From: a virus
Taxonomy: Duplodnaviria; Caudoviricetes
DNA: 64,000 nucleotides
Direction: 5' to 3' (one strand)
IMG/VR virus record: IMGVR_UViG_3300048802_000015
Coordinates: 1-64,000 of that record
Each line of letters starts with the position of its first letter. Position 1 is the first letter of the stretch. The position numbers and the translations under genes were made by a program. Shown one piece after another: positions 7,158-13,270 of this stretch. The notes under the pieces were generated by a model. That model was not told the DNA's origin. It worked only from the letters and a program-made list of their open reading frames with translations, and did not search any database.

Positions 7158-7411
7158 GCTACCCTCGCCCTCGCCCAGTACGCCGCTCGTCTCCCCGCAG
7201 CCTCTTTCCGATGGCGATCCACGCTCCCCCTTGGTCGACTGGCCTTATCCGCAGCAATCAGTTGCTCTGGTGTCAGCACGTCTGCTGGAACTTCGATGCC
7301 GGCGAACTTGGCGTCGCACACCTCGCAGCCTTCGACCTTCCAGGCCAGGCGGTAGCGCGGCGTTTGGAAGCGGGGAGGGACGCCGTCCCGGTGCCAGGTG
7401 CAGGTCTTCAT
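7154..7411 (-). CDS. Hypothetical protein
   Basis: ATGA-coupled to the methyltransferase stop; CEVC motif. Confidence 0.5.
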   Translation of the reverse strand: MKTCTWHRDGVPPRFQTPRYRLAWKVEGCEVCDAKFAGIEVPADVLTPEQLIAADKASRPRGSVDRHRKEAAGRRAAYWARARVA

Positions 7412-8589
7412 GGCAGGCACCCCATCACGGCTTCGACGAAGGCTTGGGCTTGCGGCGCGCAGAGAGCGTTACCGTAACCCCGCAGTCGTCCCAGTCGCTT
7501 GGTAGCCCCTGAAGCCAGCGGCTGTGTGCCGGGTTCAACTGGCCGCGCTTTTCCGTCGGTGCAGAGGAGCCAGTCGGCGTCTCGCCAGAAACCATCAAGC
7601 GGGTCTTGCGCGAGTTGCACGAGTCGCCGGCCTCGTTGTAACTCGCTGTCGCTGGGCTCCCTGCCATTGGAGTTGGCCAGCCTGCAAGCTGCGCCACATT
7701 CCCCAGTCCCTGCACCGTCGTTCGGGCCCGGTTCCCGCCGTAGTCCTTGCCCCTGTTCGTCGAGCTGTTCGGGGCATCCGGGCAGGTGTCCGGGGTGGGC
7801 CATCCCGCTAGTAGGACAAAGTCCTGCAAGTTGCTCCCGTGCCTCGTCTCCCCCACCGCCCGTTTCGCCTGGCCGCCCCTCTCCGCATCGTGAACCGTCG
7901 CTGTCGGCCATCCCGCCAACTGCACCGCCCCCGGCAATCTGTCGTCGCCCTGGCTTGGTCCGCCCTTCGGCCCGTCCTGCGAGCATGGAGTCGGCCACCC
8001 TGCGAGCCTCGCTTGACCAAGCAGTGACAAGATCGGCGGACCGCTCACTTGGTTGTGTCTGTCCCGCCCGTTCCCATCTTGCACTGTCGGCGTGGCCCAT
8101 CCAATACAAGCGGTGTCTGAGGTGCGGCGCGCCTGCCCACGCAGCGCAGGTATCAAGCGCCCCAGCGGCGTAGCCCGCGCTTTCAAGGTCAGCAGATACA
8201 GCGTCGAACCACCCAAGCCCTTGGGGACTGGATACTTGCTCGCCAATGACAACGTCAGGGCGACACTCGCGGATGAGGCGGAAGAACTCGGGCCAGAGGT
8301 GGCGTTTGTCATCGATGCCTTCGCCTTTGCCCGCGACCGAGAACGGCTGGCAGGGGCAGGATCCGGTCCAGACATTGCGGATGTCTGACCATCCGGCGCA
8401 TCGGAGAGCGTAGGACCACACTCCAATCCCGGCGAAGAAGTGGCACTGTCGATAGCCGCGAAGGTCAGTTGCTTGGACATCTACGATGCTCCTTTGGTCC
8501 ACTTCGCCAAGCGCAATGTGCCCAGCTTCAATCAGGTTGCGCAGCCACGCAGCGGCGAATTTATCGTGCTCATTGTAATATGCTGTCAT
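7408..8589 (-). CDS. C5-cytosine DNA methyltransferase, alpha-type polypeptide
   Basis: Motif I FFAGIG, motif IV GSCPCQPFS, motif VI GEQV, motif VIII APHLRHRLY, motif X RLRGYGNA. Confidence 0.9.
   Translation of the reverse strand: MTAYYNEHDKFAAAWLRNLIEAGHIALGEVDQRSIVDVQATDLRGYRQCHFFAGIGVWSYALRCAGWSDIRNVWTGSCPCQPFSVAGKGEGIDDKRHLWPEFFRLIRECRPDVVIGEQVSSPQGLGWFDAVSADLESAGYAAGALDTCAAWAGAPHLRHRLYWMGHADSARWERAGQTQPSERSADLVTAWSSEARRVADSMLAGRAEGRTKPGRRQIAGGGAVGGMADSDGSRCGEGRPGETGGGGDEAREQLAGLCPTSGMAHPGHLPGCPEQLDEQGQGLRREPGPNDGAGTGECGAACRLANSNGREPSDSELQRGRRLVQLAQDPLDGFWRDADWLLCTDGKARPVEPGTQPLASGATKRLGRLRGYGNALCAPQAQAFVEAVMGCLP
7425..8480 (-). CDS. Nested alternative-frame polypeptide (beta-type methyltransferase subunit, WPTP repeats plus motif IX)
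   Basis: 351-aa ORF fully inside the methyltransferase gene; five GW(P/A)T(P/A) repeats; C-terminal QLNPAHSRWLQGLPSDW. Confidence 0.75.
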   Translation of the reverse strand: MSKQLTFAAIDSATSSPGLECGPTLSDAPDGQTSAMSGPDPAPASRSRSRAKAKASMTNATSGPSSSASSASVALTLSLASKYPVPKGLGGSTLYLLTLKARATPLGRLIPALRGQARRTSDTACIGWATPTVQDGNGRDRHNQVSGPPILSLLGQARLAGWPTPCSQDGPKGGPSQGDDRLPGAVQLAGWPTATVHDAERGGQAKRAVGETRHGSNLQDFVLLAGWPTPDTCPDAPNSSTNRGKDYGGNRARTTVQGLGNVAQLAGWPTPMAGSPATASYNEAGDSCNSRKTRLMVSGETPTGSSAPTEKRGQLNPAHSRWLQGLPSDWDDCGVTVTLSARRKPKPSSKP

Positions 8590-9206
8590 GCCCTACTCGC
8601 CCTTCTGCGCGCGTGGGCGACGACTAGACCAGCGGAGATTCGCGCGCGATGTTCGGCGCTTCTCGGAGGCATGCGCTTCCCGATCTTGGCCGCTGACAAC
8701 TTCGCCCTATGCTCTGCCGTGAGAGTCTTCCCGATGTGCGCCTCTCGCAATGCGCGCCTGGTCTCCGTAGACACAAGGTGGCCACGGCTCGCGGAACCTA
8801 TGAGTTCCTTTGCTCTTTCCGACTGGTGCCGTCCCCTGTTGAGATTTGCCGTCCGCTCGACGATCCATCGCGGAAGCCCGGCAACGCCGTCCCCGCCAAT
8901 CGTGAGGTTATAGCCAAGCGGCGCAAGCGTTCCGAGTTGGGCAATCAAATTCCTCTCAACATGCGCAAGATCATCTCGTCCCAACGCGCATGCACAGTGC
9001 TCAATGGTGAAGGCTTCCACTCCGTGCTTTCTCATCGCCGCGTAAAGCGCCGTCGCGACTCCGTCTCTGGCCGCTCGAACATGATCAGTCCATCTCCGGC
9101 GCAGACCACGAACCGTCACCCCGACGTACTGCTTACCGTTCACCGCATTGGTGATGACGTAGGCAATGAATCGCGAGGGCTCGTGCTCGTTGTAGTAGGC
9201 GGTCAC
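8586..9206 (-). CDS. GIY-YIG homing endonuclease with NUMOD3-like repeats
   Basis: AYVITNAVNGKQYVG, GYNLTIGGDG and repeated H(Q/T)SxE-type motifs. GTG start at 9206. Confidence 0.85.
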   Translation of the reverse strand: MTAYYNEHEPSRFIAYVITNAVNGKQYVGVTVRGLRRRWTDHVRAARDGVATALYAAMRKHGVEAFTIEHCACALGRDDLAHVERNLIAQLGTLAPLGYNLTIGGDGVAGLPRWIVERTANLNRGRHQSERAKELIGSASRGHLVSTETRRALREAHIGKTLTAEHRAKLSAAKIGKRMPPRSAEHRARISAGLVVAHARRRASRA

Positions 9207-9520
9207 GTCCCCACCTTCGGGTAGATGCCGTCCGTCCACTCTATCCCCAGCACCACGTAGTCCGGTCCCACGGCCCCCTCAAATGTGCCAGCGTCCATGA
9301 TGTAGGTGATGGTCCCCCGCACCTCCCGTCCCGAGTAGCCCTCGGCCTCGCGCTCCTTGGCAGCCTCCGGATCCCACTCGTACATCACGAGCTGGTCGCC
9401 AACGCGGTAGTCGCGGTCGTTCTTGCGAACCTCAAAGGGCTTCTTGCCGCGAGCAACGGCGTCGAAGAACTTGGGCCAACATTTTATGTAATGTATTGCC
9501 CGGTGGGATTGGTCGCTCAT
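9203..9520 (-). CDS. ASCH/PUA-like (DUF3850-type) protein
   Basis: IKCWPKFFDAVARGKKPFEVRKNDRDYRVGD motif. Confidence 0.8.
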   Translation of the reverse strand: MSDQSHRAIHYIKCWPKFFDAVARGKKPFEVRKNDRDYRVGDQLVMYEWDPEAAKEREAEGYSGREVRGTITYIMDAGTFEGAVGPDYVVLGIEWTDGIYPKVGT

Positions 9521-9525
9521 CGAAT

Positions 9526-10841
9526 ACTCCCCGGCGTGGATACTGCCTGCTTTAGCTGGCAGAGGAAACGCCGTCCGGTTGCTACGATGGTTGACTTTAC
9601 ACGCGCACAGCGTATCCTGCAAGCGTGCCGTTGCGAGGATTCAAATACCGTTTCTACCCGACCGCCGAGCAAGAGGTCTTGCTCCGCAGGACCATCGGGT
9701 GCTGTCGTCTCGTCTACAATCGCGCCCTGCACGAACGCAGCGAGGCGTGGACGTCGGGGAAGAAGTCCATCGGGTACGCGGCCCAAAGCTCCGCCCTCAC
9801 CGGCTGGAAGAAAGAGCCCGAGCTTGCGTTCCTTAACGAGGTTTCGAGCGTTCCTATCCAGCAGGCCTTGCGCCACCTGCAAACCGGCTACGCCAACTTC
9901 TTCGCCAAGCGGGCCAAGTATCCCAGCTTCAAGAAGAAGCGCTCGGGCGGTTCGGCAGAGTTCACCCGCAGTGGGTTCCGCTTCGCCGAGGGCAAGCTGA
10001 CATTGGCCAAGATGGATGCCCCACTCGACATCCGATGGAGCCGCCCACTGCCCGCCGGTGTGCAGCCATCGAGCGCCTCGGTGTCGCTGGACGCTTCCCA
10101 GCGCTGGCACGTGTCCCTGCTCTGCGAAGACCGCACCATCAAGCACCTGTCCAAGCTCAAGACCGCCGTCGGGATAGACCTCGGCATCAACGCCTTGGCC
10201 ACGCTCTCTACTGGCGAGAAGATTCCCAACCTCCAGCACGACGCCCGAGAGATGAAGCGCAAGCGTCGCCTCTCCCGCGCGATGGCCCGCAAACAGAAAG
10301 GATCCAAAAACCGAAACAAGGCTCGCATCAAGCTCGCTCGTCTGCACGCCAAGGTGGCCGACCGTCGCCGCGACCAAATGCACAAACTCTCTACTCGACT
10401 CGTTCGCGAGAACCAAGTGATCGTCGTCGAGGATTTGAACGTCGCTGGAATGGTCCGCAACCACTGCCTCGCCCGAGTTATCTCGGACGCCGCTTGGCGC
10501 ATGCTCCTGACATTCTTGGCGTACAAGTGCGCCTGGTATGGCCGGGAGTTGGTGAAAGTCGACCGCTTCTACCCCAGCAGCAAGACATGCTCCGCTTGTG
10601 GTCACGTCGTCGAGCACCTGCCCCTCGACGTGCGCAAGTGGACTTGCCCATGCTGCAATGCAGAACACGACCGAGACGAGAATGCAGCTCGCAACATTTT
10701 GGCCGCGGGACTCGCGGTTTCTGTCTCTGGATCTGGTGTTAGCCATCGTGTCCTTCGGGGTGCGGTGCAGTCAGAGTTGAAAGAGAAATACTCGGTTGTG
10801 AAGCCGGGAATCCGCCTCCTTTAGGGGGCGGAGGATGTCAA
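9526..10841 (+). mobile_element. TnpB-only IS200/IS605-family element 1
   Basis: Left-end hairpin CTGCCTGCTTTAGCTGGCAG; right-end hairpin CCGCCTCCTTTAGGGGGCGG followed by ...GATGTCAA; no tnpA. Left boundary +/-1 nt. Confidence 0.8.
9625..10824 (+). CDS. tnpB: TnpB RNA-guided nuclease 1
   Basis: FKYRFYPT HTH N-terminus, RuvC residues GIDLG / VVEDL / DRDENAA, zinc finger CSAC..CPCC. Confidence 0.92.
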   Translation: MPLRGFKYRFYPTAEQEVLLRRTIGCCRLVYNRALHERSEAWTSGKKSIGYAAQSSALTGWKKEPELAFLNEVSSVPIQQALRHLQTGYANFFAKRAKYPSFKKKRSGGSAEFTRSGFRFAEGKLTLAKMDAPLDIRWSRPLPAGVQPSSASVSLDASQRWHVSLLCEDRTIKHLSKLKTAVGIDLGINALATLSTGEKIPNLQHDAREMKRKRRLSRAMARKQKGSKNRNKARIKLARLHAKVADRRRDQMHKLSTRLVRENQVIVVEDLNVAGMVRNHCLARVISDAAWRMLLTFLAYKCAWYGRELVKVDRFYPSSKTCSACGHVVEHLPLDVRKWTCPCCNAEHDRDENAARNILAAGLAVSVSGSGVSHRVLRGAVQSELKEKYSVVKPGIRLL

Positions 10842-12032: not shown

Positions 12033-13270
12033 ATCCTCGGCGTGGAAGCCGCCCCCTTTAGGAGGCGGAGGAAACGCCGTCCGGTTCTGGGTTGCTTTTC
12101 TTGCCTTAGAGCTGTAGTGTCTAAGCAGTGAAACTCGTAGCCGTTGCAAAGCTTCTGCCCACGCACGAGCAAGCCGCCGCTCTGCTGGCGACGCTTGAGC
12201 GTGTGAATGAGGCGTGCGCATGGCTGGCCGAGCGAGCTTTCGAGTTGAAGTCCGCAGACAAGCTCAAGCTGCAAGGGCTCTACTACCGAGACCTCCGCGA
12301 GAAATTCGGGTTGTCGTCGCAGATGGCCGTGCGAGCGATCTCCAAGGTGGTCGAGGCGTACAAGCGCGACCGCGCCCGCAAGCCCACCTTCAAGCCCCAC
12401 GGGGCCATCGCCTACGACCAGCGCATCTTGAGTTTCAAGGCGATGGACCGCGTATCGCTGCTGACCATCTCGGGCCGCATTCTCGTTCCCTACGTCGCCG
12501 GCCCCTACCACCTCGCGCGACTCGAAGGCGTGCGCGGCCAGTCCGACCTTGTGCTCCGCAAGGGAAAGTGGTTCCTCTTCGTGACCGTCGAGGTACCCGA
12601 CGGTTCCCCTATCGACCCTGAAGGCTGGCTTGGTGTCGACCTTGGAATCCGCAACCTCGCAGTCGACTCCGATGGCGAGGCCCACAGCGGCGCGGCCGTC
12701 GAGGCCACGCGCCAGCGACACCAGCGCCTGCGCAACATGCTTCAACCCGTCGGCACCAAGTCGGCAAAGCGACACCTCAAGAAACTCTCGGGCAAGGAGG
12801 CCCGCTTCCGCTCCCACACCAACCACGTGATCTCGAAGCAAATCGTCGCCAAGGCCAAAGGCACCGCGAGAGGAATAGCCGTTGAGGAATTGACGGGTAT
12901 TCGCGAGCGGGCAACGGTCAGAAAAAGCCAAAGGGCGATGCATTCGGGATGGGCGTTCTTTCAGTTGCGTGCGTTCCTCAGCTACAAGGCCGCCATCGCT
13001 GGCGTCAAGCTCGTGGCCGTGGATCCGCGCAACACCTCTCGGACTTGCCCAGCGTGCGGCTACATCGACAAGGCCAACCGCAAGAGCCAGTCCGAGTTCG
13101 CTTGCAAGTCGTGCGGGTTCGTCGACCATGCCGACCACGTCGGTGCGGTCAACATCGCACGCAGGGCTGCTGTAATGCAGCCTATCGTCTCGGACTATCG
13201 TGATGGAAAGCATTGCTTGTCCGTCTCTGTTCAGGGGCAAAGCTGCCTGCTTTAGCTGGCAGTCCATTAC
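12033..13270 (+). mobile_element. TnpB-only IS200/IS605-family element 2
   Basis: Left-end hairpin CCGCCCCCTTTAGGAGGCGG; right-end hairpin CTGCCTGCTTTAGCTGGCAG followed by TCCATTAC; no tnpA. Boundaries +/-1 nt. Confidence 0.78.
12128..13255 (+). CDS. tnpB: TnpB RNA-guided nuclease 2
   Basis: RuvC residues GVDLG / AVEEL / HADHVGA; zinc finger CPAC..CKSC. Confidence 0.9.
   Translation: MKLVAVAKLLPTHEQAAALLATLERVNEACAWLAERAFELKSADKLKLQGLYYRDLREKFGLSSQMAVRAISKVVEAYKRDRARKPTFKPHGAIAYDQRILSFKAMDRVSLLTISGRILVPYVAGPYHLARLEGVRGQSDLVLRKGKWFLFVTVEVPDGSPIDPEGWLGVDLGIRNLAVDSDGEAHSGAAVEATRQRHQRLRNMLQPVGTKSAKRHLKKLSGKEARFRSHTNHVISKQIVAKAKGTARGIAVEELTGIRERATVRKSQRAMHSGWAFFQLRAFLSYKAAIAGVKLVAVDPRNTSRTCPACGYIDKANRKSQSEFACKSCGFVDHADHVGAVNIARRAAVMQPIVSDYRDGKHCLSVSVQGQSCLL

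Follow-up and report, generated by a model that had tools for sequence, protein, structure and literature searches.

A phage GIY-YIG endonuclease gene that appears to lie within the 5' coding sequence of a DNA methyltransferase gene and to be followed by a replacement start

To our knowledge, homing endonuclease genes have been thought to persist within genes only by way of introns or inteins, and otherwise to lie between genes. For Seg-type homing, the accepted model is that sequence differences at the target protect the carrier genome, and mobE in nrdA of Aeromonas phage Aeh1 is a case of a gene split by endonuclease insertion. The subject here is a locus on the minus strand of a 64,000-nucleotide (nt) stretch of viral DNA (the window; positions 1 to 64,000 of the 81.9-kb IMG/VR virus record IMGVR_UViG_3300048802_000015, a metagenome-derived contig), where three coupled genes follow one another in the order ASCH/DUF3850, GIY-YIG open reading frame (ORF) and C5 DNA methyltransferase, and where the endonuclease gene appears to occupy the beginning of the methyltransferase gene.

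In the mobile ORFs (mORFs) of fungal mitochondria, a foreign piece encoding the C-terminus of the host gene moves together with an endonuclease gene and the native C-terminus is left as a remnant, as in Allomyces macrogynus atp6, in atp6, atp9, cox2 and nad3 of Glomus sp., in Rhizopus atp9 and in Mortierella cox2; the inserted and native copies differ largely synonymously, and in-phase fusions of host gene and mORF occur (PMC3630166). SegB is an example of the free-standing GIY-YIG Seg endonucleases of T4-like phages, with intron-less homing (PMC2330249). Collaborative homing involves an endonuclease next to an intron (PMC10448857).

The locus in the window is probably an intron-less homing element residing inside the methyltransferase 5' coding sequence, about ten codons in, and restoring its host gene. 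It would combine a GIY-YIG/NUMOD3 endonuclease gene with, behind it, a replacement 5' end for the host gene. The endonuclease is predicted to be translated from the methyltransferase's own initiation site, GTGA-coupled to the ASCH gene, and a second start with a second copy of codons 1-10 behind the endonuclease would keep the methyltransferase whole. Cleavage, homing and immunity are inferred. The features, all on the minus strand, are as follows.

9203..9520, minus strand: upstream gene of the ASCH/DUF3850 family (Pfam PF12961, 1.5e-26; PF04266)
9209..9217, minus strand: Shine-Dalgarno-like purine run AAGGTGGGG, ending 2 nt before the GTG at 9206, with its GGTGG core ending 4 nt before
9177..9206, minus strand: putative resident methyltransferase start codon and codons 2-10 (V-T-A-Y-Y-N-E-H-E-P), by match to the family N-terminus
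8586..9206, minus strand: predicted GIY-YIG/NUMOD3 homing-endonuclease ORF, 206 amino acids (aa), from Pfam and sequence
8892..9167, minus strand: predicted GIY-YIG catalytic domain, residues about 14-105 (PF01541, secondary structure of the model, PDB match)
8592..8870, minus strand: C-terminal helical NUMOD3-like repeats, residues about 113-205, presumed DNA-binding (PF07460, model)
8586..8589, minus strand: ATGA stop/start overlap coupling the methyltransferase to the end of the endonuclease ORF, from the sequence
8560..8589, minus strand: putative replacement methyltransferase start and codons 2-10 (M-T-A-Y-Y-N-E-H-D-K), spelled TAT TAC AAT .. GAT AAA, from the sequence
7408..8589, minus strand: C5 DNA methyltransferase ORF, 393 aa, in a single frame (PF00145, homologue alignment)

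The duplicated start is the first line of evidence. Both ORFs open with M/V-T-A-Y-Y-N-E-H, then GA: the upstream copy (9206..9181) reads GTG ACC GCC TAC TAC AAC GAG CAC GA and the downstream copy (8589..8564) ATG ACA GCA TAT TAC AAT GAG CAC GA, and over these 26 nt there are five differences, which are the start codon and four synonymous third positions. A degenerate 23-nt pattern for T-A-Y-Y-N-E-H plus GA has exactly 2 matches in the window against 0 expected (100 shuffles), and its 15-nt version has exactly 2 matches across the whole 81.9-kb record. An earlier reading of the window made from its letters alone (the sequence-only reading) had pointed to duplicate MTAYYNEH starts at 9206 and 8589, and these are borne out letter by letter, as is its claim that both are coupled to the preceding stops: the ASCH/DUF3850 stop TGA (9205..9203) shares bases with GTG 9206 in a GTGA overlap, and the endonuclease stop TGA (8588..8586) shares bases with ATG 8589 in an ATGA overlap. 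It had also been proposed that the endonuclease took over the native start and its coupling. This agrees with the absence of any ATG, GTG or TTG from GTG 9206 to the first beta-strand of the endonuclease, and because no other start codon is available, the endonuclease in the window appears to depend on the captured start. The codons at 9177..9206 now serve as the first ten codons of the endonuclease ORF, and the purine run at 9217..9209 presumably has a role in initiating at GTG 9206. Since P0002, L167 and L168, three relatives, still keep a Met at the ancestral endonuclease start, reliance on the initiation site of the host gene appears to be clearest in the window. Relatives read H-D-P, I-D-P or I-N-P; the window's E-P (GAG CCC) corresponds to the D/E-P of the family, and the upstream copy probably runs through codon 10 rather than codon 8 only. 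Insertion near the methyltransferase start was therefore correctly placed in the sequence-only reading, with the junction, judged from the relatives, moving from codon 8 to about codon 10. Its further claim of a synonymously recoded, supplied N-terminus holds for the window; in relatives the two copies are similar and not always synonymous.

Two other arrangements were considered and rejected. An intron- or intein-borne endonuclease was ruled out, as the endonuclease ORF ends in a stop and the methyltransferase has its own start; no Rfam family, group I/II introns included, was detected in 7300..9700 at E up to 1. A free-standing intergenic gene with its own start is not what the window contains, the ORF opening with the methyltransferase's first ten codons.

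The source of the shared peptide was sought in the methyltransferase family. Viral contigs scanned with the methyltransferase N-terminal domain gave 80 loci (L004-L083), and the 3 kb of upstream flank at each held no detectable relative of the endonuclease. In almost all of these endonuclease-free loci the methyltransferase starts xAYYNExDPxAAxWLRxLI; because endonuclease-free alleles start xAYYNExDP, the AYYNE peptide is the conserved N-terminus of the methyltransferase family. Presence and absence of the endonuclease are found at one fixed site, with 13 occupied loci against 80 empty viral loci. Towards both the N- and the C-terminus, methyltransferase homologues align in the same single frame, and that of L004 does so over its whole length, which rules out a frameshifted or split methyltransferase. 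An alternate-frame ORF of 351 aa lies inside the methyltransferase (7425-8480, minus strand) with five L-A-G-W-P-T-P-like repeats, and seems to be what the family's [LM]-A-D-[SA] repeats, in the variable middle of the protein, give when read in the other frame; it is not taken for part of a split gene because the 393-aa frame is matched at both ends by homologues that differ widely in length.

For the endonuclease, in turn, the peptide appears to be an addition. The window protein scores 27.6 bits against PF01541 (GIY-YIG; cut-off 22.6) and 19.1 bits against PF07460 (NUMOD3), just below the cut-off of 20.4, and PF07460 is among the precomputed Pfam hits of most of its homologues. Equivalents of the I-TevI catalytic set (Y16, Y27, R38, H42, E84, N100) are invariant in a 17-sequence alignment, because of which the enzyme looks apparently intact. 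The endonuclease profile matches the I-TevI catalytic domain 1mk0 (E = 2e-4), with I-TevI residue 5 aligning to query position 14; in an AlphaFold2 model, residues 1-9 have a predicted local distance difference test score (pLDDT) below 50, strand 1 begins at residue 14 and five helices follow residue 113. The same kind of N-terminal peptide is present in the four closest database relatives (56-76% identity), and more distant endonuclease relatives open at the first beta-strand, with M-I-L-Y-V-I-T-N. In cultured phages the nearest proteins are <=37.5% identical and, among the matches listed, alignments begin at query residues 11-16; neither a close endonuclease relative nor a case of this arrangement was found in cultured phages among the matches. 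Given distant relatives that start without it, the low pLDDT of residues 1-9 and an I-TevI alignment that begins at query position 14, the N-terminal peptide is an add-on outside the endonuclease fold as modelled.

Thirteen distinct occupied loci were compared (the window, L002, L003, L084/85, L086, L087, L167, L168, L169 and L268-L271). In 13/13 the endonuclease lies directly 5' of the same methyltransferase family, and the methyltransferase has its own complete N-terminus in every one. An ATGA or GTGA overlap between endonuclease and methyltransferase is usual, being found also in L002, L003, L084, L168 and L268-L270. Among 80 more distant GIY-YIG viral loci, only L087 adjoins this methyltransferase. 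A remnant of methyltransferase codons 1 to about 8-11 stands before the endonuclease in nine of the thirteen loci, and takes three forms. It is fused in frame in the window, L002, L003, L167 and L168 (and, by protein sequence, in P0002 and P0005); it forms a leader ORF of 14-21 codons, with a stop that abuts or overlaps the endonuclease ATG, in L084, L086 and L271; and in L169 it overlaps the endonuclease N-terminus in another frame. In the last of these (L169:440-520), the remnant M-R-A-Y-Y-N-D.. and the endonuclease are in different frames, and the endonuclease frame opens with a GTG that lies 4 nt after the ATG of the remnant; this overlap appears to be a frameshifted derivative of an in-frame fusion. 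At the loci with sequence available there, the start of the remnant itself overlaps the stop of the upstream gene, which varies by locus. The remaining four loci (L087, L268-L270) are without a remnant and look like classical free-standing insertions with their own start.

These forms bear on the possibility that AYYNE functions as an N-terminal module of the endonuclease protein and is shared with the methyltransferase for reasons at the protein level, such as a partner in common, a tag for degradation or regulation, or co-translational assembly. Conservation of the peptide in five close endonuclease relatives, and its identity in the window's two proteins, would be expected of such a module. 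The explanation is nonetheless very improbable, with the remnant in a different frame or a separate mini-ORF in L084, L086, L271 and L169, with the peptide missing from distant relatives and from the cultured-phage relatives listed, and with the AlphaFold2 model placing it in predicted disorder outside the fold. Because it is out of the endonuclease frame in these four loci, the remnant is best read as a footprint in the DNA, not as a module of the protein.

Chance resemblance or an assembly artefact, in which a chimeric contig would join two methyltransferase alleles, was prompted by the metagenomic derivation of the record, and is hardly credible. No chance matches are expected, all reading frames are intact and coupled, and the same architecture recurs in independent contigs from JGI, ENA and Logan assemblies. 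Extra YYNE-coding 12-mers, in a scan of 83 loci that left out L087, L169 and L268-L271, occur only in front of endonucleases, with the exception of L049/L080.

A second line of evidence comes from codon spelling at the target site, for which 66 unique empty alleles, 13 endonuclease-linked downstream copies and 9 upstream remnants were aligned. The counts are as follows (GC3 is the G+C fraction at third codon positions).

TAC at the first Tyr with AAC/AGC at the Asn/Ser codon: empty alleles 51/66, linked copies 0/13, remnants 6/9
The same spelling, low-GC3 empty alleles only: 12/21, linked copies 0/13
Ser codon at that site: AGC in 15/15 empty alleles, TCN in 6/6 linked copies
Pro codon CCN: empty alleles 50/66, linked copies 6/13

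By Fisher tests, which treat alleles as independent, TAC with AAC/AGC separates the linked copies from all empty alleles (p = 1.4e-7), from low-GC3 empty alleles (p = 6e-4) and from the upstream remnants (p = 0.001), and the Ser and Pro codons are also divided (p = 1.8e-5 and p = 0.046, respectively). M-T-A-Y-Y-N-E-H-D with TAT TAC AAT is common to the linked copies of the window, L167 and L168, the methyltransferases of which are only 52-63% identical, and this spelling is found at the functional start in 0/66 unique empty alleles. The association of spelling with linkage is strong, and is not proof of selection. A CNNNG cleavage motif as in I-TevI did not, by eye, separate linked from empty alleles. 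The suggestion in the sequence-only reading that recoding would make the site resistant to recutting has only this statistical association in spelling in its favour. That reading might have failed had empty alleles carried the AT-type start or had unrelated GIY-YIG proteins carried the peptide. As the counts above indicate, empty alleles do not carry that start; distant homologues begin at the first beta-strand, and only close relatives at the same site have the peptide. Its overall interpretation is supported.

Some empty alleles merit separate description. In L010, L072, L083 and L049, all endonuclease-free, the methyltransferase reads H-D-K-F like that of the window, with Lys for the usual Pro at codon 10; such alleles could be resistant, or former carriers of the element. 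In L049 (2976-3040; identical in L080), a second in-frame K-A-Y-Y-N-E (GCA TAT TAC AAT GAA) stands 33 nt upstream of S-A-Y-Y-N-E-H-D-K-F. This duplicate may be a scar from endonuclease loss, and the spelling of its two copies is the reverse of the immunity prediction. Cys-rich, zinc-ribbon-like insertions follow the catalytic P-C motif region in some alleles (L167, L072), and the L072 methyltransferase, with a large insert, has 652 aa.

The relation of occupied to empty alleles was also followed in a methyltransferase tree built without the target region, in which occupied alleles are interspersed with empty ones (8 changes for 9 rows). There the window forms a pair with the empty allele L004 (Shimodaira-Hasegawa-like approximate likelihood ratio test, SH-aLRT, 91), and L004 has E-P like the window's remnant, a pair of residues present in about 9% of empty alleles. 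E-P in L004, the window's nearest empty methyltransferase, fits an upstream copy that is resident sequence and a downstream H-D-K copy that was brought in.

Against this background the locus could also be seen as an ordinary free-standing endonuclease between the ASCH and methyltransferase genes, the remnant being an inherited by-product of one sloppy recombination or short tandem duplication and the downstream spelling being hitch-hiking donor sequence, drift, or the result of selection only against recombination between repeats. Intergenic residence evidently works, as the four loci without a remnant demonstrate; P0002, L167 and L168 retain the internal Met noted above; the tree offers only one independent contrast on supported branches; and the linked types (AYYSEND with TCN, and MTAYYNEHD with TAT TAC AAT) recur across loci and could be inherited. 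This explanation is nevertheless unlikely. Remnants take three different forms and are spread over several endonuclease subclades, the positions at which they vary are those that vary in empty alleles, and the window's remnant shares E-P with the nearest empty methyltransferase, for which reasons repeated capture of resident sequence fits better than one accident. Moreover, the window endonuclease is without another start codon, and the division of Ser codons between TCN and AGC, together with 0/13 against 51/66, would be hard to reach by drift alone.

Several points weigh against residence of a homing element within the methyltransferase coding sequence. Four of the 13 loci lack a remnant, so that members of the clade can do without capturing one. 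A search for a near-identical sibling phage with ASCH and methyltransferase meeting at an empty junction found none, and none of the loci had ASCH beside the methyltransferase (identity to the closest ASCH relatives in IMG/VR is only 38-43%); the insertion in this lineage was for want of such a sibling reconstructed by family-level comparison. The tree is poorly resolved, with only one independent pair on well-supported branches, and its starred branches do not exclude a single origin of occupied alleles. In a sliding-window comparison of the window methyltransferase with all alleles, no co-conversion mosaic and no clearly donor-like segment was seen. The codon association, from tests in which alleles count as independent, could arise partly from shared ancestry of the linked 5' ends. 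The contrast in codon bias is modest, being suggestive and not decisive: GC3 over the first 40 codons is 0.55 in the methyltransferase and 0.78 in the endonuclease, and the earlier description of GC-type codons upstream and AT-rich codons downstream is locally true, and is weak as an argument by itself because GC3 across genes in this genome spans only 0.58 to 0.80. Finally, homing may be inefficient with a left homology arm as short as ~30 bp.

The proposed element would operate as follows. During co-infection the endonuclease would cut empty alleles in or near the conserved AYYNExDP-AAxWLRxLI coding stretch, and double-strand-break repair would copy in the endonuclease together with the replacement 5' end, the ~30-bp remnant serving as left homology arm and the methyltransferase body as right arm. 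With both arms within the methyltransferase gene, homing would be independent of the upstream neighbour gene. The altered codons (TAC to TAT, AAC/AGC to AAT or TCN, and often the Pro codon) would shield the restored site from self-cleavage, and would also make the two copies less likely to recombine. The element may plausibly derive from an ancestor that stood free upstream of the methyltransferase, as the endonuclease genes of L087 and L268-L270 do; on its transfer to a non-syntenic genome, the broken resident 5' end may have been joined to the endonuclease by illegitimate recombination. The most complete version of this proposal is that the endonuclease clade evolved splice-free residence in coding sequence, capturing a start and ~10 codons as both initiation region and portable ~30-bp arm, carrying a codon-altered, cleavage-immune N-terminus, and so constituting the first 5', start-capturing counterpart of the mORF strategy. 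For that version we judge the arguments on the two sides to be evenly balanced.

The locus and its relatives would represent a third route for such genes in phages, inside a reading frame, with the host start taken and the lost codons supplied by a carried copy. If the steps inferred above hold, they would explain spread among phages that share only one conserved gene, would supply naturally occurring target spellings, both cut and uncut, for a GIY-YIG enzyme of new specificity, and would make short duplicated gene starts before endonuclease genes recognizable as insertion footprints, with a corresponding warning for annotators. If the most far-reaching reading is true, the locus would be a natural instance of nuclease immunity by synonymous recoding, in which homing needs the methyltransferase gene only. 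The layout also links expression of a phage anti-restriction methyltransferase to translation of a selfish gene. Two TnpB (IS605 OrfB / Cas12f-like) genes, at 9625-10824 and 12128-13255, are found a short way upstream of the ASCH gene and on the other (plus) strand, and with the endonuclease make three selfish nuclease genes in one small region.

Among known systems, no phage precedent for this layout was found in the literature searched, which is not proof of absence. Like the Seg proteins, the endonuclease is a phage GIY-YIG protein with presumed C-terminal DNA-binding modules, is not associated with an intron and shows presence/absence polymorphism between related genomes, and its identity to Seg-like proteins of cultured phages is at most 37.5%. 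Unlike the Seg and Mob genes, which lie between genes and have their own starts, the window gene appears to reside inside host coding sequence, to use the host start and to supply a replacement N-terminus. It shares with I-TevI of the T4 td intron (PDB 1mk0/1ln0) a homologous catalytic domain with equivalent Tyr, Arg, His, Glu and Asn residues and a predicted two-domain layout; in contrast to I-TevI, there is no group I intron, and the host gene appears to be kept whole by codon duplication and not by RNA splicing. With mobE and collaborative homing it has in common a free-standing endonuclease at or in an essential or conserved phage gene, whereas in those systems the host gene is in two pieces or a separate intron is present, and in the window the host gene is one full-length ORF. 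The mitochondrial mORFs likewise place an endonuclease ORF inside a protein-coding gene with no intron or intein, with a diverged copy of the displaced end and with a native remnant. They differ in that the mORF is at the 3' end of an organellar gene, whereas in the phage gene it is the 5' end that is duplicated, with the replacement piece downstream of the endonuclease and with an upstream remnant of only about 30 bp that would give the endonuclease its start codon and translational coupling. By this analogy, the mitochondrial mORF appears to be the closest described strategy, and the phage case would be its mirror image at the 5' end of a gene.

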